A stretch of 64,000 nucleotides of DNA from Dehalococcoidia bacterium. Its GTDB lineage: Bacteria; Chloroflexota; Dehalococcoidia; GIF9; AB-539-J10. Shown here in pieces: positions 7,926 to 33,445 of this stretch (positions are counted from its first letter, which is position 1; every line of letters starts with the position of its first letter). The notes under the pieces are model-generated. The model did not search any database, had not been told where the DNA came from, and was given only the letters and a program-made list of their open reading frames with translations. The stretch is taken from positions 24,082-88,081 of the forward strand of contig JAUWQY010000002.1 of NCBI GenBank assembly GCA_030610855.1, written 5' to 3'. Position numbers and translations under genes: made by a program.

Positions 7926-8273
7926 TCAGCCAAGCCCACCACTCAGTTTCCTGCCGCCAATGAGGTGAAGATGAAGGTGAGGCACCTGCTGCCCCCCCTC
8001 AGAGCCGCAGTTTATGACCAAGCGATACCCCCTTTCCGCTATCCCCTCCTTCTCAGCCAAGTTTCTAGCTATGATTATTAGACGCCCGGCAAGCTCCTGC
8101 TGTCCTTCCATGAGCCGGGCAGCAGATGTTATGTGCGTTTTGGGAATAATCAGCACATGTGTGGGTGCCTGAGGGAAGATATCTCTGAAGGCCAGGAAAT
8201 CTTCATCTTGATAGACTATATCGCTAGGCGCTTCCCCGGCAGCAATCCGGCAGAAGATACATTCTTCAGGCAT
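7926..8273 (-). CDS. HIT family (histidine triad) nucleotide hydrolase
   Basis: 115 aa; N-terminal CIFCRI and C-terminal HLHLHLIGG histidine-triad motif. Confidence 0.85.
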   Translation of the reverse strand: MPEECIFCRIAAGEAPSDIVYQDEDFLAFRDIFPQAPTHVLIIPKTHITSAARLMEGQQELAGRLIIIARNLAEKEGIAERGYRLVINCGSEGGQQVPHLHLHLIGGRKLSGGLG

Positions 8274-25444: not shown

Positions 25445-26971
25445 ATGGCCAGAGCGGTGATTGTATCAGATATGCTACGTGGCTTTCTCGAGGAAGGTTA
25501 TCCTCTTTACTGCGGCATCCAGGCCAGGAGTATCATACCTAATGTCCAGAGACTGCTGAAGAGGGAGCTAGAACAGGGCTCGAAGGTGTTCTATTCCTGT
25601 GACCGCCATATACCGGACGACCCGGAATTCAGGATGTTCCCACCTCATTGTATCGAAGGTACTGAGGAAGCCGAACTCATACCCGAGCTCCTAGAATATC
25701 CCGGCGAGATGATACCGAAGAAGTCTTTTAGCGGCTTCTACAAGACTCCTTTAGACAGGAGACTGGAGGCAATCAGGCCCGAAACGATTGTTGTCTGCGG
25801 CGTAACCACCCATATCTGCGTTTTGCACGCAGTTATTGATGCCAGAAACAGGGGCTATGATATTGAAGTCCCCGCTGATTGCGTCGCCTCATTCGATAGA
25901 AAGGCTCACTTCTTCGCCCTGGATTATATGGAAAAGGTGCTTGGAGCCAGGCTTGTCAAGCCACCTGTTAAGGTGCCCCCGCCGCGTTTTGAGATTCTGG
26001 ATTCATGGTTGAACGGGGAGACGGCCGACATCTATTTCCCCCGCACGGTGGAAATACTCAAGAAAGAGGGGATTAACCCCGCAGTAACGATGGAGGTTTT
26101 TTCTCGCCAGGCCGGTATCTTGTGCGGCATAGAAGAAGTCAAAACTCTACTAGATAGAGTGCTTCCCGAGGATAATCGTGAAGTCTGGGCACTGGATCAA
26201 GGCGAGCCTTTCAACGGAATGGAAGTAGTTCTGCGCATAAGAGCCCCTTATCAAAGCTACGGAGCTTATGAGACAGCCTACTTGGGCATGCTCTCTCATT
26301 GCAGTGGCTGGGCTACTGCTGCTCGAGAATGCGTCGATGCTGCCCGGGGTATTCCTGTCATCAGCTTTGGAGCCCGTCATGTCCATCCCTCAGTGGTCGG
26401 CATTATGGAATACTCTGCCGTAGTCGGAGGCTGCACTGGCTGCGCCAGTACCGCCGGGGCAAGACTTGCTGGCATCCAACCCACAGGGACTATTCCCCAC
26501 GCCCTCATCATTATTATGGGCAACACTGCTAAGGCCACTCTTGCCTTTGACAAGCATATGCCTTCCGAAGTGCCACGCATTACTCTGGTAGATACCTTCG
26601 AGGACGAGGTCAGAGAAAGCGTAACTGTGGCCAAAGCGATGCAAGGAAAGTTACAGGGCGTAAGATTAGATACACCTTCAGAGAGAGGTCGAGTTACTGC
26701 CGACTTGGTCAAAGAGGTTAGAGCCTGGCTGGACCTCGAGGGATTTAAGGACGTGAAAATAGTTGTCAGCGGTGGACTGAACCCGGAACGCATCAGGTAT
26801 TTTATCGATGAAGGGGCACCTGTGGACATTCTCGCTGTTGGCAGCCATATCAGCGATGCCAAGCCCATTGACTTCACCGCTGACCTTCACGAAATAGAGG
26901 GCAAACCCATCGCCAAAAGAGGCAGAATGCCCGGCATCACTCCCAACCCCAGGCTAAAAAGCGTGATGTAA
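25445..26971 (+). CDS. fused nicotinamidase/isochorismatase-family hydrolase (N-terminal) and nicotinate phosphoribosyltransferase (C-terminal)
   Basis: 508 aa. The N-terminal ~180 aa carry cysteine-hydrolase/isochorismatase signatures (IVVCGVTTHICV, catalytic Cys context). The C-terminal ~330 aa match archaeal-type NAPRTase. No stop codon or frameshift between the two parts. Confidence 0.8.
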   Translation: MARAVIVSDMLRGFLEEGYPLYCGIQARSIIPNVQRLLKRELEQGSKVFYSCDRHIPDDPEFRMFPPHCIEGTEEAELIPELLEYPGEMIPKKSFSGFYKTPLDRRLEAIRPETIVVCGVTTHICVLHAVIDARNRGYDIEVPADCVASFDRKAHFFALDYMEKVLGARLVKPPVKVPPPRFEILDSWLNGETADIYFPRTVEILKKEGINPAVTMEVFSRQAGILCGIEEVKTLLDRVLPEDNREVWALDQGEPFNGMEVVLRIRAPYQSYGAYETAYLGMLSHCSGWATAARECVDAARGIPVISFGARHVHPSVVGIMEYSAVVGGCTGCASTAGARLAGIQPTGTIPHALIIIMGNTAKATLAFDKHMPSEVPRITLVDTFEDEVRESVTVAKAMQGKLQGVRLDTPSERGRVTADLVKEVRAWLDLEGFKDVKIVVSGGLNPERIRYFIDEGAPVDILAVGSHISDAKPIDFTADLHEIEGKPIAKRGRMPGITPNPRLKSVM

Positions 26972-27133
26972 ACAACGGCAGAAGAGCTTTATTACGCTTA
27001 TTCATATATAGTTAACTGCATAATCTCGTACAAGAATCCTCTCCGTTGACGAGCTTTGCTCCATAAGTACCACTTGCTCCAAAAGTAAGGCATCTGCTCC
27101 AAAAGTCCGTGAGTTGCCCAAAAGGTCTGCACC

Positions 27134-27583
27134 TCAAGTTCTATCACCCCAAAAATCCCTCCAATCCCATGGCTTGTATTGACTACGTTTCCTAGTTGCA
27201 CTGATGGCCAAGACTGAGAAAAGGATTGCGGCTACTATTGATACAATTGTCGCACTGATTGTCCAGCCAGTACGAGGTATGCTAATCATTGCTAATGCTA
27301 AGCCGGTTGTCATTAATGCAAAGCCCCATAAAACCAACATGAGAGTCTCAAATCTATCTCCCTTAGACCTTTTAGTATCTTGGTCGTGGTATTCGTCAAT
27401 CTTCTTAATAAGAGTGGCTAGCTGTTCATTATCCTCTTGTTTTGGATTCGCTTCATTTGGTGCCGTCTCGGTTTCTTGTCTTGAGTAATTTCTTTGGTTG
27501 CCAATGAACATGGATAATAGCTTTAGTAATCCAAAACTGATGACACCTAGAATTAGCATAGCTATTAATGCTAGAACAAACAT
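27134..27583 (-). CDS. small membrane protein (3 predicted TM helices), candidate effector of the island
   Basis: 149 aa; hydrophobic N-terminal helix, hydrophilic ~55 aa loop, two C-terminal TM helices; AAGGAG SD 8 nt before the ATG; preceded by the 33-nt repeat element. Confidence 0.5.
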   Translation of the reverse strand: MFVLALIAMLILGVISFGLLKLLSMFIGNQRNYSRQETETAPNEANPKQEDNEQLATLIKKIDEYHDQDTKRSKGDRFETLMLVLWGFALMTTGLALAMISIPRTGWTISATIVSIVAAILFSVLAISATRKRSQYKPWDWRDFWGDRT

Positions 27584-27611
27584 ATCTCGGTCTCCTTTCC
27601 TGTTTTTGGCC

Positions 27612-27644
27612 TTGTATCACAAGTGCCTTCTGTATCAAAAGTCA
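27612..27644. promoter_or_regulatory. 33-nt repeated element copy A (TTGTATCAcAAgTGCCTTCTGTATCAAAAGTCA) upstream of the membrane protein gene
   Basis: 31/33 identical to copy B at 28874-28906; contains an internal TGTATCA direct repeat. Confidence 0.55.
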
Positions 27645-27674
27645 TTTATCTGGCTTTTGCAAACCTTGATTGTT

Positions 27675-28424
27675 TCATTCATTGATAAGTCGAGGGATAC
27701 TTGGCGTTTCCTCATCTTTGGGCTTTTGTAGGCTCAAACAATAATTTAACAAGGCTGCTTTAGCACCTTCGATACTCTGTTTATGTTCTCCCAAGTCAAT
27801 CTCCGAAAGTTGTTTTGCTCTCAATTGCCCCTTGCTATCTGGCCCAAGCACAGCTAACTGAATAGGCCCCTTAACTCCACCAACATTCACGTCTATTGCA
27901 TGTTCTAGGGTCCATGTAGCCACAAATTCACCTCCGCTAAGAGGTGGAGGGCCAGTCTTCCAGAACACCTCCCGCATTAGAGCAAGAAACGAATCTGTAA
28001 CTTGCTGAGTTACACCAAGAGAAACATACCACAAATCCGTCTTAAGTTCCGGTTGGAAATCAGCCACTGCGAACTCGCAAAGGTGGAATTTCCCCTCTGC
28101 TGGGAAAGCTACTAAAGCACCATACCCTGCTTTCGGCGCAAATGTATAGGCAAAATCTTGTTGAGTAACCCTGCTTAGGTATTCTATTATTTCCATTGCG
28201 GTCCTATTGAATATCCCATCTTGCCATGATTTTTCAACTGTAGCTTCGAAACGTTGCCCAAGCCCGACTTGCCCAGTACCTGCAAGGATAATGCTATCCC
28301 CTATAATTTTTAACTTTTGGGTGGGTTGTTCGACTGTATGAATCTGGCCTGAGCCAAAAGTCGCTGAACTATCAGTGCCTAGAACGACACCATTCTGGCA
28401 GAGAATGCCGACTATTGCTGTCAT
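27675..28424 (-). CDS. proteasome beta/HslV-like Ntn-hydrolase family protein
   Basis: 249 aa. N-terminus MTAIVGILCQNGVVLGTDSSATFG aligns with proteasome beta / HslV mature N-termini: Thr1 after Met removal, Asp17 and a Lys near position 33 conserved. The start abuts the stop of the upstream Panacea-like gene. Confidence 0.6.
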   Translation of the reverse strand: MTAIVGILCQNGVVLGTDSSATFGSGQIHTVEQPTQKLKIIGDSIILAGTGQVGLGQRFEATVEKSWQDGIFNRTAMEIIEYLSRVTQQDFAYTFAPKAGYGALVAFPAEGKFHLCEFAVADFQPELKTDLWYVSLGVTQQVTDSFLALMREVFWKTGPPPLSGGEFVATWTLEHAIDVNVGGVKGPIQLAVLGPDSKGQLRAKQLSEIDLGEHKQSIEGAKAALLNYCLSLQKPKDEETPSIPRLINE

Positions 28425-28856
28425 TTATTCGCAGCCTTGAAATACACTATTAGCCTTCATTTCAGGGTAGGCTTTATAAATTGCCGACACTAATTGCTCA
28501 AAGGATAATACTCGTACAAACTCAGATACGGTTTTTATAAACTCTTGTGCCTTAGTATCTAGGCTGGTCAATAGCGTATCTCCTGCCTGCTGCCCCTTTT
28601 CTGTGAGCCTATAACTCGACCAAGTTTGCTCAGGGACAATTTCAACGTAACCATCGCCCGCTAACTCAAGGAGCACATCATATAAAGACACATCAAAAGG
28701 ACCATAATTGTATGGCTTGAAGTCATAGTGAGGGCCCCCCACTAACTTTGGTATTTCTCTGTCAATCAAGAAGAGGAGTTTTTGCACCTGCACCGGAGTA
28801 TGGCTTGAACCATTGGCGGGAGCAAATGCAGCCAAAATAGTTTCCCTTTTATTCAT
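28425..28856 (-). CDS. Panacea (DUF4065)-like domain protein
   Basis: About 143 aa from the ATG at 28856 (GGAGGT SD 7 nt upstream). The motif VQKLLFLIDRE ... YNYGPFDVSLYDVL resembles the Panacea/SocA-like antitoxin domain core (KLxKLLY ... GPx ... Y). The ORF-track GTG start at 28907 probably over-extends into the 33-nt repeat. Confidence 0.5.
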   Translation of the reverse strand: MNKRETILAAFAPANGSSHTPVQVQKLLFLIDREIPKLVGGPHYDFKPYNYGPFDVSLYDVLLELAGDGYVEIVPEQTWSSYRLTEKGQQAGDTLLTSLDTKAQEFIKTVSEFVRVLSFEQLVSAIYKAYPEMKANSVFQGCE

Positions 28857-28873
28857 TTCATTTACCTCCAGTT

Positions 28874-28906
28874 TTGTATCATAAATGCCTTCTGTATCAA
28901 AAGTCA
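28874..28906. promoter_or_regulatory. 33-nt repeated element copy B, between the S-like gene stop and the Panacea-like gene start
   Basis: TTGTATCAtAAaTGCCTTCTGTATCAAAAGTCA; 31/33 identical to copy A at 27612-27644. Confidence 0.55.
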
Positions 28907-28907
28907 C

Positions 28908-29906
28908 CTAGGCAAATACTTTTCTAATTTGATTCCAGTAAGTAGTGTTGTGTAAAAGAGATTTTATACTAGCTTCATCTAGTTTATTGTCATCGTTCAT
29001 TGGTAACCAAATCTTTGTCGTTGCTTCAAACTTGGTTTTATAACATTGGCGACCATAAGAATAACGCCATCTTTGCCGATTTAACGCAAACGCAATAAAA
29101 AATAAGGTCTCTCTCCCTAAAGGATATTTCGGAGAAAGTACAAGCACATTGTCAGTTGCGATAAAACTACTCAGTTGAACAAAGGCATCTCCCCCTACAG
29201 TGCTAATTGTTATTCTGCTTCTGGGATATATGTTAGCTTTATCAGGAATCTCAAAGAATCCTACAGTGCCGTTATCCCCACTAACACGGGATACCGTTCG
29301 ATGGACACCTGAAGCTAATGCCGATAACGAATGGAAGTCTCCCCGCTTGACATTGAACAGTTCACTAATGTCCATACTTTTCCATTGAAATATAGATAGG
29401 GCTAATGAACCCCTTTTACCCTTGGGCGGAAGCAATGAACGGTAATCCATCAAGAATTGTTCAGCTATAGCATCTTGGTCAATATCCTTTTCACCATTTT
29501 CTCTTTCCACAACTGGCATCTGTATTGTGATATTGGACAATTTATTACGGAAGCATTTTCTCCCGAAGTTATAACGCCATTTCATCGCATTAAGTGACGT
29601 TGCGATATAGAGTAAAGTGCTCTCTAACATAGGAATTCGTGGTTTTAGCACCGCAACATCATCCTTTGCACCAAACTCATACGGGTGGAATTTAGCTAAT
29701 AACGGTTGCCCATTATAAGCAACTGTAAGACTATGTTGATACCGTTTCTCCTGTGGAATGTCGAAATATCCAACCAACCCATTATCAGTATCCCCACAGG
29801 AAATTAAGGGTACATCTCCAAGTTCTAATTCCTTTGTAGCGTGAAAATCACCTGACTTAATGGTAAATAAGGCATCAACTGTCTTTGCCTCAAGTATCCA
29901 GTTCAT
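28908..29906 (-). CDS. Type IIB restriction-modification specificity (B/S-like) subunit with two target-recognition domains
   Basis: 332 aa; internal duplication. Each half has an F-x-[IV]-K-x-GDFH block. Each half also has an HsdS-like L-x-Y-I-A-x-S-L-N ... (R/K)-x-S/YGRxC(F/Y) ... I(Q/W)(M/L)P motif. Size matches the BcgI B subunit class; overlaps the upstream MTase gene by 4 nt. Confidence 0.65.
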   Translation of the reverse strand: MNWILEAKTVDALFTIKSGDFHATKELELGDVPLISCGDTDNGLVGYFDIPQEKRYQHSLTVAYNGQPLLAKFHPYEFGAKDDVAVLKPRIPMLESTLLYIATSLNAMKWRYNFGRKCFRNKLSNITIQMPVVERENGEKDIDQDAIAEQFLMDYRSLLPPKGKRGSLALSIFQWKSMDISELFNVKRGDFHSLSALASGVHRTVSRVSGDNGTVGFFEIPDKANIYPRSRITISTVGGDAFVQLSSFIATDNVLVLSPKYPLGRETLFFIAFALNRQRWRYSYGRQCYKTKFEATTKIWLPMNDDNKLDEASIKSLLHNTTYWNQIRKVFA

Positions 29907-31792
29907 TCTTCTTTTCCAAACCTTATTAAGAACGCTACTGCATCCCTTACCACTTGTTCAATACCCTGTTGAGTTTCCTCCATACTTGGTTGTGCTTGGT
30001 CTAAGTGATTTTCAGGAACCAACTCGAGGAGTTTATCAGAAAAGTCTATCGGACACGCCTTCTGCCTCATTTGAATATTCGGTACTGAGCATGATGGATT
30101 AGTAAGGAATGTTCTAATCAAATCACTTGAGTCGTACAGTTCGTTAGTCGTCCTATCAGTGGGAAGCCGTTTGCCCTTGCTTTTGAGTAATCCATCTGTG
30201 AGTGTCCTTACCCATAAGACGTTTTGCTCAATAGGATGGGGTATTCCCTTACGGATAAATACGCCTACTGTTGTAACACCAACTGGATAGAACATATCTA
30301 CAGGGAAAGTAACCACAGCACAAAGAGTGTGGTTAGCTAATAGTGAATCACGACGCCAGGTGAGGTATTGACCTGGTTTCACCATAGCAGGATATGGTAG
30401 TACTGAAAATAAGAGACCTCCGTGTTGTATTTGCCCTAGTGCTTGGTCTATGAATCTGAATTCTTTCTCAGCATCACGTTTCAAGGCGAAGGGGGGATTC
30501 ATCATTACCTTTGTCACGGGCGGGTTGCCGGAGAGCGTCTGCGCATATCTTGCTGTAGGAAGCCCACTCTCAGTGTGAGGAATGAGGAATTTCTTGAAAC
30601 AGTCTCCTTCTTGTATATTGTTCTTGCCATCCCCCCTGAAAATCATGTTTACTACTGCTAGTGCTGCAACCCCAGCTTCCTGCTCAATGCCAAATACCGA
30701 TAATCGTTTGAAGCGGGCTAATTGAGAAGGACTAGCTCGCCTTTTCACATAGTCAAACGCTGCAACTAAGAAACCGCCTGTCCCACACGTGGGGTCGTAT
30801 ATTGTATCCGTAATCTGTATATCCATGACATCAGCAACCCATCGTGTCAAGTGACGTGGCGTAAGAACTATGCCAAGGTCTTGCGCCCAGCTAGCATACT
30901 TTAGAAATACCTCGTAAAATGCACCTAACCAATCCGCTCCTGAGTTCATTGCTGAGCGGATATTTAGGTTATTAAGTTCCTGGAGAGTATCCACTAAGGC
31001 TCGACGCAATTTTGCATGGTTGTCAACTGTAGAGGGCAACCTAATTCTGATATAGTCATAGAATTCAGGCTTGCCTTGGTCTTTTAGAATACTGTCAACA
31101 CGAGAATTGATGTCACCGATTAGTATATCGGGACGGCGCTCGTCTATATTGGGGGGAGTACCGCTTAGCATGGATAGCAATAAGGCGGCCATAACACCTG
31201 CTCTCTGATGCGGGTTGACTGCGCCTAAATGAAGAATTTCGTTGATATGCTCAGCGCGGGAAATGAATAGGCCTTCATCTATTTCTGGCTCTGCGATGTC
31301 TGCAATCCCATTCTTTAACATAAGTTCAAGTTGAGACTGAGGCAATAATCCTGTTGCCTCAATCTCGTTCAAGGTGATTGGGATAAATGTACTACCATCG
31401 AAGAATTCACTCCGTACTAGGAAAGAATCAATCTCATTGCCAGCTACACCAGTAACGAACCTAGCATCATATCGATCGCTTTGGGCAAATCGCTTGGCAT
31501 AATCCTCTGCCTCTGAAAGTGCTCGCCGAAGCTCACTATGAGAACGCTTCGCCTCAATAATCCAAAGCACACGCTCAGTAACTTTCACTATATTCTCTGG
31601 TTTGTCTAGGTTAAGGCACTTCTTTATTTCAGGATTCGATAGGCACTCGTTTTGTGTCCACACTTGACCAGTATCACACCTTTCAGGGTTACGAACATCC
31701 CAACCAAGAAGACGCAGATTACGCTTAATAAATTCGTAGGCATGGACTTCACTATCTTTGGGTTTATGTGCCATCAATCTTTGACCTCCCAT
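29903..31792 (-). CDS. Type IIB (BcgI-like) restriction-modification A subunit: N-terminal PD-(D/E)xK nuclease plus gamma-class N6-adenine DNA methyltransferase
   Basis: 629 aa; AdoMet motif I DPTCGTGGFL and catalytic motif IV NPPF in gamma-class order; N-terminal D ... IIEAKR (PD-ExK-like) segment; size and partner gene match the BcgI A/B architecture. Confidence 0.7.
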   Translation of the reverse strand: MGGQRLMAHKPKDSEVHAYEFIKRNLRLLGWDVRNPERCDTGQVWTQNECLSNPEIKKCLNLDKPENIVKVTERVLWIIEAKRSHSELRRALSEAEDYAKRFAQSDRYDARFVTGVAGNEIDSFLVRSEFFDGSTFIPITLNEIEATGLLPQSQLELMLKNGIADIAEPEIDEGLFISRAEHINEILHLGAVNPHQRAGVMAALLLSMLSGTPPNIDERRPDILIGDINSRVDSILKDQGKPEFYDYIRIRLPSTVDNHAKLRRALVDTLQELNNLNIRSAMNSGADWLGAFYEVFLKYASWAQDLGIVLTPRHLTRWVADVMDIQITDTIYDPTCGTGGFLVAAFDYVKRRASPSQLARFKRLSVFGIEQEAGVAALAVVNMIFRGDGKNNIQEGDCFKKFLIPHTESGLPTARYAQTLSGNPPVTKVMMNPPFALKRDAEKEFRFIDQALGQIQHGGLLFSVLPYPAMVKPGQYLTWRRDSLLANHTLCAVVTFPVDMFYPVGVTTVGVFIRKGIPHPIEQNVLWVRTLTDGLLKSKGKRLPTDRTTNELYDSSDLIRTFLTNPSCSVPNIQMRQKACPIDFSDKLLELVPENHLDQAQPSMEETQQGIEQVVRDAVAFLIRFGKEE

Positions 31793-32034
31793 CCCTGACC
31801 AGCCTTATCATATTGCTTCTTCTTCGGTATTCGTTTCCGTTTGAGAAGCCCATCAAGTGATGCGAGAACTGACTGTAAATTAGCAGGAGACCTTTTGCCT
31901 TGATTCCAGGATTCGACTGTGCGTGTAGCTTGCCCTATCTCTCGAGCAATATTGGCAAGTGTCCAGCCTTTTTGTTGAAGCTCAAGAAGTTTGGCTTGTA
32001 CTTTGTCGTTATTCACTTGCTGGTATTCTACCAT
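31774..32034 (-). CDS. XRE-family helix-turn-helix regulator (C-protein-like controller of the RM operon)
   Basis: About 87 aa from the ATG at 32034; HTH GWTLANIAREIGQATRTVESWNQGKRSP; overlaps the MTase start by 19 nt. The ORF-track start at 32259 is likely an over-extension through AT-rich sequence. Confidence 0.6.
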   Translation of the reverse strand: MVEYQQVNNDKVQAKLLELQQKGWTLANIAREIGQATRTVESWNQGKRSPANLQSVLASLDGLLKRKRIPKKKQYDKAGQGWEVKD

Positions 32035-32138
32035 ACAATGTGTGTTATTATCAATAAGTATTAGGAGAATATTTTTGTGTTTTTTTGTAGAATTGGTAGC
32101 AAAAGGTATTGATGAAGTCATACATTGTGTGTTATTAT
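32032..32138. repeat. 20-nt direct repeat (CATACA[A/T]TGTGTGTTATTAT) x2, 87 nt apart, spanning the HTH gene start and its upstream region
   Basis: Copies at 32032-32051 and 32119-32138 with a single mismatch; each contains an in-frame ATG on the minus strand. Confidence 0.6.
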
Positions 32139-32776
32139 AAATACAGAACAGGGAATGAGCAGGAGAATTGAAATGGAATTTTGGAAAGAAAAAGGACCGG
32201 CAATAGCGGAATCTGACACAGTTAAGGAAAACAAGCTGGGATGGCAAGTTCCCTCCCAATCGGGTACAAAGCCCCCTTGACGGGAGAGGATTAAGGTAAG
32301 GGTGATATCCCCCTCCCTCTAACTCCCTCGCACCGGGGGAGGGAGAAATTATGAGGAGTTTTGCAGTTAACTATGATTAGCGATACATGCATTAGCTTCG
32401 CTGCTTTCGTGCTGTTCTCAATTCCTCTACTATCCTGGGCAATATCTCACCCGTCTGTCCCTGAAGAAGGCAGTCTGATACACCTTCGTGGGTGAGTGGT
32501 GTAGGCTCTGCGTGTCTCTTGAAGCCCAAGCATTTCCTGCCAGTACGCCCCCCCCCTGGGGTCTTTCAGGAAAAGGTCGTGTCTTTGATAAGCCCTGGCC
32601 TCTGCCTCCTTGTTTGTGGTCCACACCCCTTTTGGTCCCCCCGACAAGTCGGGGTATGCCTGATTCAGTCGACATACCGGCCCCGCTCAGTGCAATGGCA
32701 TACCTGCTTTCCACCAAATCCTCTGCTCCCTGCCTGACCAGGCTTTCCGTTACTCACCCCACCATCACGGTCATCT

Positions 32777-33445
32777 CTAACAAACTGCCGCCTGCTCCTG
32801 CTTTCTTGCTCTGAACAGGATCACCCTGACTGCGATCAAAGCTAGTAAGCCCGAGACAAGAAGTATCTTTCTATCGAGAGGCATGACAGGCCAGAAGCCT
32901 TGCCAAGCGGCATCCATTACCTCTATCAGCTCGATTCGAGGAACCTGGAATTGCGTTTCACCTGTCTGAGGGTCGCGTTGGTAGAACATCACATCAGGAT
33001 TCTCAATGGGGGTCTCCACTTTGCTCTCATACTCCACCCATATATGCATGGGCGACATATTGACTCGATAGGGGATGCCTTTCGCTTCCAGAACAGAAGC
33101 CAGAACCAGAGCCCGGCCTTTGCAATCTCCCCTCTCCCGCTCCAGCACTTCCTGAACGGTAGGGAAGTACCAGGGCATGCCATAGACCTCCCAATCATAA
33201 CCATAAGGTATCCTGGCCAGGACTGCCTTCTCAACAGCTACAGGATCAGAAGGAAGATCATCGAGCATGACCTCGACGGCGCCGGGATCAACACGTAGGT
33301 GAGCAGCCCTTTGGATGCTGATGATTATGTTCAGAGGATTGGGATACAACACAACAAGAATCCAGAGGATGATAAACAAAGGAAAATAGCGCCGGAAAAC
33401 CCTCTTCCCCGCAATCTTCCGTCCTGGCCTGCTACTATCCCGCAT
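32777..33445 (-). CDS. membrane-anchored transglutaminase-like domain protein
   Basis: 222 aa; TM helices at the N- and C-termini; ERGDCKGRALVLASVLEAKGIPYRV resembles the transglutaminase-like cysteine-protease core. Confidence 0.5.
   Translation of the reverse strand: MRDSSRPGRKIAGKRVFRRYFPLFIILWILVVLYPNPLNIIISIQRAAHLRVDPGAVEVMLDDLPSDPVAVEKAVLARIPYGYDWEVYGMPWYFPTVQEVLERERGDCKGRALVLASVLEAKGIPYRVNMSPMHIWVEYESKVETPIENPDVMFYQRDPQTGETQFQVPRIELIEVMDAAWQGFWPVMPLDRKILLVSGLLALIAVRVILFRARKQEQAAVC

Follow-up and report, generated by a model that had tools for sequence, protein, structure and literature searches.

A mobile two-gene module couples a Panacea-like protein with a proteasome-family peptidase across bacteria and archaea

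Two abutting minus-strand genes within a 64,000-nucleotide stretch of a contig from a Dehalococcoidia bacterium (JAUWQY010000002.1; the whole stretch is referred to here as the window) encode a small Panacea-like protein, which we call the partner, and a proteasome-family peptidase. Analysis of relatives of these genes revealed that their pairing is near-obligate and recurs in about 150 independent loci. The pair is also mobile, as documented by an empty site, its carriage as insertion sequence (IS) cargo, repeat flanks, its position in a low-GC island, and a patchy distribution across phyla that includes archaea. No description of a two-gene module that joins a Panacea-type protein to a proteasome-family enzyme was found in the literature searched. 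We hold it about evenly balanced whether the pair acts as a self-contained mobile type II toxin-antitoxin (TA)-like or abortive-defense module in which the peptidase is kept in check by its partner. The elements of the pair are as follows.

28425..28856, minus strand: partner gene, Panacea-like and DarG-C-terminal-like, 143 amino acids; open reading frame (ORF) from ATG
27675..28424, minus strand: peptidase gene, proteasome-beta-like N-terminal nucleophile (Ntn) threonine hydrolase, 249 amino acids; ORF with match to Pfam PF00227
28422..28427, minus strand: TAA-ATG junction between the partner and peptidase genes, read from the sequence

The stop codon of the partner gene (TAA, 28427-28425) directly abuts the start codon of the peptidase gene (ATG, 28424-28422) with zero gap. 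This arrangement had been described in a first-pass annotation of the window, and both protein sequence strings quoted there are present in the ORFs of the window. The TAA-ATG junction is consistent with translational coupling of the two genes. An alternative, GTG-started ORF for the partner extends to 28907; the ATG start is taken as correct because homologs of the partner are 140 to 143 amino acids long.

A survey for conserved pairing, suggested in the first-pass annotation, gave a clear answer from both sides of the pair. A peptidase-seeded scan, limited to a single genome for each species, returned 80 loci, and the partner was located directly 5' of the peptidase on the same strand in 71 of the 71 loci for which upstream sequence was available; in one locus outside these 71 (L053), the partner is inverted and lies 3' of the peptidase. 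Conversely, a partner-seeded scan of metagenomes found 80 loci, and the peptidase lay downstream in 78 of them. This recurrence is far beyond chance. The intergenic gap ranged from −4 (an ATGA overlap) to about +17 nucleotides in 70 loci, and pairing was kept at 27 to 36% identity, including in bacteria of the candidate phyla radiation (CPR) and on an IMG/VR contig (L169). As in type II TA systems, the two genes form a compact, co-directional bicistron that is conserved as a unit. The partner and peptidase co-diverge (r=0.685), and mean pairwise identity was 0.444 for both proteins alike. When the ORFs within 5 kb were clustered all against all for the 80 loci, no third conserved gene emerged, and the sole clustered neighbor was the IS1595-like transposase of one metagenome-assembled genome (MAG).

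The pair is distributed across Chloroflexota, Acidobacteriota, Proteobacteria, the Planctomycetes-Verrucomicrobia-Chlamydiae (PVC) group, Nitrospirota, CPR, and other bacteria, as well as Methanomicrobiales archaea, with the closest relatives of the window pair residing in Anaerolineales/Chloroflexota MAGs. Searches with tblastn returned no match for the partner in GenBank phages and none for the peptidase in PLSDB plasmids. Among cultured organisms, Legionella worsleiensis ATCC 49508 and some isolates of Legionella pneumophila carry the pair (P0241-P0245); the L. worsleiensis peptidase has the accession WP_058491875.1. The Legionella peptidase orthologs are annotated as "Proteasome subunit beta," and members of the pair are annotated separately or as hypothetical proteins.

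The peptidase matched the Pfam Proteasome family (PF00227) over residues 2 to 118 with 31.7 bits (E=1.5e-7; gathering score, 22.4), and a precomputed PF00227 assignment is present in most of its homologs. An AlphaFold2 (AF2) model (predicted local distance difference test [pLDDT], 86.5; predicted template modeling score [pTM], 0.83) was compared with known structures using Foldseek, which returned 20S alpha and beta subunits and Anbu at a probability of 1.0 and template modeling scores of 0.65 to 0.81; the model has the predicted alpha-beta-beta-alpha architecture of an Ntn fold. The proteasome-beta-like character proposed for the 249-amino-acid protein at first pass is thereby upheld. The protein begins with Met-Thr and carries no propeptide, as almost every one of the 150 top-ranked family representatives listed begins at residue 1. 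M1-T2, D18, K37, and G51 (numbered from Met) are invariant in alignments of 25 and of 61 homologs; conservation of Thr1, Asp17, and Lys33, initially read from the window protein, therefore holds across the family and is joined by that of a glycine equivalent to Gly47. In agreement, the family profile matched archaeal beta subunits in the Protein Data Bank (PDB) with the T1, D/E17, and K33 columns aligned. Further positions were compared using hhalign against the Thermoplasma acidophilum beta subunit; this alignment covers both proteins from end to end, but its statistical support is weak and it serves for residue mapping only. In it, G51 aligns with Gly47, and the Ser169 position is hydrophobic in the peptidase family. 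The AF2 model also predicts a long C-terminal helix (residues 208 to 232) that is followed by a Pro-containing tail. Clustered at 50% identity, the family amounts to 1300 clusters that its profile retrieves at E≤1e-3, of which 482 still match at E≤1e-30, and we consider it a separate clade because the profile retrieves only these 1300 clusters at the looser threshold. An NCBIfam search of the peptidase gave no HslV match. One family member of 468 amino acids (P0429) bears a C-terminal extension of about 240 amino acids beyond the proteasome-like domain.

The identity of the partner is less canonical. The 143-amino-acid protein matched Pfam SocA_Panacea (PF13274, DUF4065) with 20.3 bits (E=1e-3), below the gathering score of 25.7; a match to PF13274 at E≤0.01 was obtained for 13 of 28 close homologs (best E=1.8e-7), and the UniProt name of the Legionella ortholog is "Antitoxin SocA-like Panacea domain-containing protein." Among PADLOC models, the partner matched PDC-M19A (3e-13, model positions 1 to 125 of 294), a model of the DarG C-terminal region (4e-6), and LmuC models. 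A full-length PDC-M19 match of both proteins was not obtained, as the partner matched PDC-M19A partially and the peptidase gave no match. Weak Pfam matches to PadR and TrmB also occur in the partner family. The modeled fold has a predicted winged-helix core, and among known structures it is nearest to the DarG domain that binds DarT, which aligned over 132 residues; MarR/PadR-type winged-helix proteins come next and cover only about 80 residues.

Two sequence signatures characterize the partner family. The signature of Panacea domains is a conserved GPV motif in a beta-strand beside the central helix (PMC8832971), and the partner family has GPF at a comparable place, in the form of an invariant Y-G-P-F-D in which GPF falls within a predicted strand (residues 52 to 54). 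The second signature is an invariant C terminus, AIYKAYPEM(K/R)xNSVF, followed by 1 to 5 variable residues. This tail is predicted to be disordered, and its NSVF-type sequence is retained in the most divergent pairs. Profile matches and modeling together suggest that the small protein is a divergent Panacea relative, borderline by hidden Markov model (HMM) and structurally similar to the toxin-binding domain of DarG, in keeping with the Panacea-like designation it had first received.

The pair lies at the distal end of a restriction-modification (RM) operon within a low-GC island, the features of which are given below.

26950..32400, strand not applicable: low-GC island by composition profile, 40 to 46% GC versus 50 to 56% in the flanks
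28908..31792, minus strand: BcgI-like Type IIB/IIG RM operon, given for context only; Pfam N6_Mtase and Methylase_S, PADLOC
29903-31792, minus strand: RM fusion gene; N6_Mtase, PADLOC REase_MTase_IIG at 1e-37
28908-29906, minus strand: specificity (S) subunit gene; Methylase_S, PADLOC Specificity_II at 4e-14
28874..28906, minus strand: repeat copy 1, 33 nucleotides, upstream cassette boundary, located after the stop of the S gene and ahead of the partner ribosome-binding site (RBS); family D1
27612..27644, minus strand: repeat copy 2, 33 nucleotides, downstream cassette boundary 30 nucleotides past the peptidase stop and before the RBS of the next cassette
27134..27583, minus strand: neighboring cassette, an ORF for a 149-amino-acid predicted protein with three transmembrane (TM) segments and a charged middle segment
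27053..27106, minus strand: two copies of the motif in its variant (GGAGCA-type) form at the end of the second cassette, 85% identical to its equivalent in contig L170

The RM operon, consisting of a BcgI-like RM fusion gene and an S subunit gene upstream of the pair, corresponds to the Type IIB RM operon named in the first-pass annotation; the further claim that the pair is attached to this operon as an accessory did not survive comparison with related loci. The decisive case is a sibling RM operon on contigs L170 and L171 that is 92% identical to window positions 32120-28870 and has neither a Panacea-like gene nor a peptidase gene. In its place, the S stop is followed by one motif of about 33 nucleotides, an unrelated gene of 164 amino acids, and the variant motif (the motifs lie at 8003-8033 and 8575-8625 in L170). 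Thus, two cassettes are present 3' of the RM operon in the window versus one different cassette in the sibling operon. Close relatives of the pair that are 72 to 86% identical are positioned behind unrelated genes, including a group (72 to 76% identical) located behind sce7726/sce7725-like genes. Given the sibling operon without the pair and the location of most relatives elsewhere, we conclude that the linkage to RM genes is incidental and that the pair in the window is an independent cassette between two repeats of about 33 nucleotides, not part of the RM system.

Repeat copies 1 and 2 are identical at 31 of 33 positions, and the motif (about 31 to 33 nucleotides) has the consensus ACTTTTGRWRCA-N6-8-AYTTRTGRWRCAA. 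Within the window, it is confined to the low-GC island, which contains an ORF with a helix-turn-helix in addition to the RM operon and both cassettes. Copy 1 overlaps a sigma-70-like site (GTGACT-18-TATGAT). The motif is also found 3' of the pair, in different contexts, in relatives L081 and L085, which carry it downstream of the pair only, whereas the window has two flanking copies. It may represent a repeated promoter, operator, or recombination site that drives cassette exchange. An RNA element at the repeat was considered and rejected, as the motif had no Rfam match at E≤1 and the fold z-scores of three copies were inconsistent (−1.1, −3.6, and +2.2). Flanking direct repeats were likewise rejected as a general feature of the pair, since only L012 among about 65 loci screened has them. 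In L012, a deltaproteobacterial MAG, the pair is flanked by a perfect 29-nucleotide direct repeat, GATGCGCTTCGTTCCTCAGCGCATCCTAT, with one copy about 84 nucleotides 5' of the partner ORF as called and the other 13 nucleotides 3' of the peptidase stop; the repeat itself forms a hairpin with a 7-bp stem.

The 149-amino-acid TM protein gave no informative family match, and no homolog of its gene was found beside the pair in other loci. We do not count it as part of the module because no third gene is conserved across loci. An exact database look-up of the window proteins P0001 and the 149-amino-acid TM protein returned no identical record. Judged from sequence only, the flanks of the island encode a 508-amino-acid ORF (25445-26971, plus strand) that resembles a fusion of nicotinamidase/isochorismatase-type and nicotinate phosphoribosyltransferase-type domains, and a 222-amino-acid membrane-anchored protein (32777-33445, minus strand) with a transglutaminase-like GDCKG motif.

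Carriage of the pair by an identifiable mobile element was observed in a Vicinamibacterales MAG, in which a 2476-bp unit consisting of an IS1595-like transposase with the pair as cargo occupies at least 4 sites at 100% identity.

L034 6490-8965, and also L033, L035, and L051: IS1595-like element with the pair, Vicinamibacterales MAG

Deletion derivatives of this unit (L069-L071 and L074) lack the partner gene and, with it, the initial 82 codons of the peptidase gene, so that the partner is lost jointly with the catalytic N terminus of the peptidase. Separately, an IS1595-type transposase gene is located between the partner and peptidase in L163 (2850-3770) and L165, uncoupling two genes of which the peptidase is otherwise intact.

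Decay of the pair was one-sided. Automatic classification of intact and disrupted genes over-called disruptions, and cases were therefore inspected by hand. Beside intact partners, the peptidase gene is interrupted by internal stops in L131 and L159 and by frameshifts in L116, L127, and L149; it is truncated in L105 and L148 and absent in L134, with the partner again intact in all three. Frameshifts in L058 and L060 were left uncounted because errors in long-read MAG assemblies are possible. No intact peptidase without a partner gene was found among the loci examined. Mobility, patchy spread, and decay of the presumptive toxin gene before the presumptive antitoxin gene, as known for type II TA systems, are thus all seen in the pair.

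Neighboring genes were surveyed by scanning the closest two genes to either side of the pair. Recurrent neighbors, none of them in more than a few loci and interspersed with housekeeping genes, were RM systems of types I, II, and III, MADS, PARIS AriA, and Rosmer RmrA, as well as other Panacea proteins, GmrSD, integrases, and transposases. In favor of the expectation that homologs would reside in defense islands, defense or mobile contexts are frequent, but most neighborhoods are not recognizable as defense islands. An island in L082 combines a DNA methylase plus Vsr, an EcoRI-type methylase, and GmrSD beside the sce7726/sce7725-like genes. The pair in L082 and L085 is preceded by two genes, conserved as a unit, for proteins of about 322 and 317 amino acids (L082 4610-6547; L085 3-1932). 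The first gene of this unit has a weak Pfam match to Phage_P4_cII; the second, which starts with MYYPY(L/F)RGK, we take by eye to be Beta_protein/sce7725-like, and Beta_protein was matched once in the neighbor scan. This unit may be another defense candidate.

In HslV operons the partner is the HslU AAA+ unfoldase, while Anbu is accompanied by ATP-grasp, transglutaminase-like, and Alpha-E genes. Such conserved operon partners were not found around the peptidase, for which the Panacea-like gene is the sole conserved neighbor; unlike HslV and Anbu, the pair lacks HslU or any other AAA+ neighbor and an Anbu-type operon. The peptidase shares with HslV, Anbu, BPH, connectase, and the families described by Fuchs, Alva, and Lupas in 2021 (PMC8665760) the proteasome-beta fold, the Thr1/Asp17/Lys33/Gly47 set, and the absence of a propeptide. 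A long C-terminal helix is common to it, Anbu, and WPH, and occurrence in both bacteria and archaea is a further likeness to WPH. The 2021 study described 22 new families of proteasome homologs and found no genomic context or co-occurrence for them (PMC8665760), whereas the peptidase family has a near-obligate partner. The family may equal one of these 22, with WPH and PHD as plausible candidates.

Among systems built on Panacea domains, the module most resembles PanAT (Kurata et al. 2022, PMC8832971; NetFlax, Ernits et al. 2023, PMC10440598), with which it shares a small Panacea-type protein, a tight bicistron with an unrelated enzyme, and mobile, patchy behavior, together with a G-P-hydrophobic motif that in the partner is GPF instead of GPV and falls in a predicted beta-strand. 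It differs in that the partner belongs to a divergent subfamily, mostly below the Pfam gathering threshold, with its own invariant C-terminal YPEMxxNSVF tail, and in that the cognate protein is a proteasome-family Ntn hydrolase; the word "proteasome" is absent from the text and examined supplements of PMC8832971 and PMC10440598. In DarTG, the C-terminal domain of DarG (PDB 7yk3) binds and inhibits DarT, and the partner matches this domain by both HMM and structure, although at 18 to 23% identity and in a pair that has no macrodomain and a peptidase instead of a DNA ADP-ribosyltransferase. SocAB likewise links a Panacea domain with regulated proteolysis, but there SocB is the toxin and proteolysis is carried out by housekeeping ClpXP, whereas here the protease-like protein is the encoded partner itself. 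Rosmer RmrA, an ImmA-type peptidase, and CapP provide precedents for a peptidase and a small regulator in a mobile, defense-associated two-gene module; these, however, are metallopeptidases acting as antitoxins or sensors, in contrast to an Ntn threonine hydrolase as the presumed effector. No paper joining Panacea, antitoxin, or DUF4065 with the proteasome was found in the literature searched, "PDC-M19" was mentioned nowhere in it, and two recent defense-discovery papers mention neither the proteasome nor Panacea.

These observations led us to favor, at roughly even confidence, a module in which the partner restrains a harmful peptidase. In the mechanism that we envisage, the partner, similar to the toxin-binding C-terminal domain of DarG, would be translated first, and the peptidase would then be made by coupled translation. 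Since no propeptide precedes it, the Thr1 nucleophile of the peptidase would be exposed once the initiator Met is removed. The partner would bind the peptidase and hold it inactive, with its invariant, predicted-disordered tail (N-S-V-F as P4-P1, plus 1 to 5 variable residues) filling the non-primed substrate groove as a pseudo-substrate. If host shut-off, a phage trigger, or loss of the element caused the partner to be lost or titrated, the peptidase thus released would cleave cellular or invader proteins and cause growth arrest or aborted infection. A pseudo-substrate plug is the favored mode of restraint because an invariant NSVF with a short variable tail resembles a recognition element of the non-primed side. 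This fuller version, with the threonine peptidase as a lethal or abortive effector and the NSVF tail plugging its active site, we regard as a tentative proposal that falls somewhat short of an even chance. The roles of the peptidase as toxin and the partner as antitoxin are inferred, as are binding, tail-mediated inhibition, toxicity, and a part in defense or addiction.

Several points weigh against such a restrained effector. Classical antitoxins usually evolve faster than their cognate toxins, yet the partner is conserved as strongly as the peptidase. Lone proteasome-family subunits are normally inactive before ring assembly, and no associated unfoldase was found: flanking genes encode neither an HslU-type nor another AAA+ unfoldase, and AbiEii/OLD-type AAA domains, in 2 loci, are the only AAA domains among them. 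Second-shell residues of the active site are non-canonical in the weak hhalign alignment, with an invariant Asn180 at the Asp166 position and, at the Ser129 position, a residue that varies among homologs and is Val in the window peptidase. No PADLOC model matched the peptidase, the majority of neighborhoods lack a recognizable defense character, and we know of no toxin from the proteasome enzyme family.

Some of the same facts would also suit an adaptor and a protease, in which the Panacea-like protein recruits a target (a phage protein, foreign toxin, or damaged host protein) to a self-assembling peptidase with a beneficial, non-toxic outcome. SocA, the founding Panacea protein, is itself a proteolytic adaptor (PMC8832971); equal rates and co-divergence are as expected for obligate subunits of one complex; the long C-terminal helix of the peptidase resembles the ring-stabilizing H5 helix of Anbu and WPH (PMC8665760); and many loci lie outside defense islands. 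Peptidase pseudogenes beside intact partners, never the reverse, are nevertheless a better fit to a harmful enzyme, IS cargo, cassette behavior, and patchy spread are typical of selfish or defense modules, and no unfoldase or third component is conserved, so we rate an adaptor role as a doubtful but substantial alternative. The tail raises another option, namely that the partner is a dedicated substrate, processed at NSVF or handled by a connectase-style transpeptidase or ligase so as to be matured or covalently tagged. An invariant YPEM(K/R)xNSVF with 1 to 5 variable trailing residues is a pattern of non-primed-side recognition, persists in the most divergent pairs, and lies in a tail predicted to be disordered, and connectase, a monomeric proteasome homolog, acts as a sequence-specific ligase (PMC8665760). 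A pseudo-substrate inhibitor would explain this tail pattern equally well, however, and with the partner fold being that of a toxin-binding antitoxin domain and no acceptor or target gene conserved nearby, a substrate role appears unlikely.

It is similarly improbable that the small protein acts mainly as a transcription factor of the winged-helix type, serving as autoregulator or repeat binder, with the peptidase an unrelated co-transcribed enzyme. MarR/PadR-type proteins as the next structural neighbors, the weak PadR and TrmB matches, and the direct-repeat motif just 5' of the partner gene would favor such a factor, but the winged-helix matches span about 80 residues versus 132 for the DarG C-terminal domain, the repeat motif is present in the window lineage only while pairing is universal, and near-obligate coupling with co-divergence argues for a protein-protein relationship. 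A functional tie to the BcgI-like operon, for instance as a regulator or back-up effector, would be favored by the arrangement in the window, in which the partner gene starts 51 nucleotides 3' of the S gene on the same strand with no terminator predicted between them; in addition, one PADLOC Type I S-subunit model has a homologous C-terminal domain, and several relatives have RM neighbors. With a different gene in the slot of the sibling operon, relatives at 72 to 86% identity behind unrelated genes, and no RM family conserved as a neighbor, this tie is very improbable, and we rejected it on the basis of the empty site in L170 and L171 and the lack of co-inheritance with RM genes.

A module in which the Panacea-like partner restrains the peptidase, if confirmed, would represent the first immune or addiction role of the proteasome fold in prokaryotes and would provide one orphan family of proteasome homologs with both a function and a genomic context. 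Should the peptidase be the effector, the repertoire of Panacea partners would gain a new enzyme class, and the fold of self-compartmentalizing proteases would join the effectors of bacterial immunity and addiction. As a potential lead for design, the invariant NSVF tail further points to a natural peptide inhibitor of proteasome-type active sites, or to a recognition tag for them. With a near-obligate partner whose kind is known among antitoxins, and with the genomic behavior of a selfish or defense cassette, this clade makes the function of an orphan proteasome homolog directly testable, and L. worsleiensis and some L. pneumophila isolates offer culturable, tractable hosts of the orthologs.

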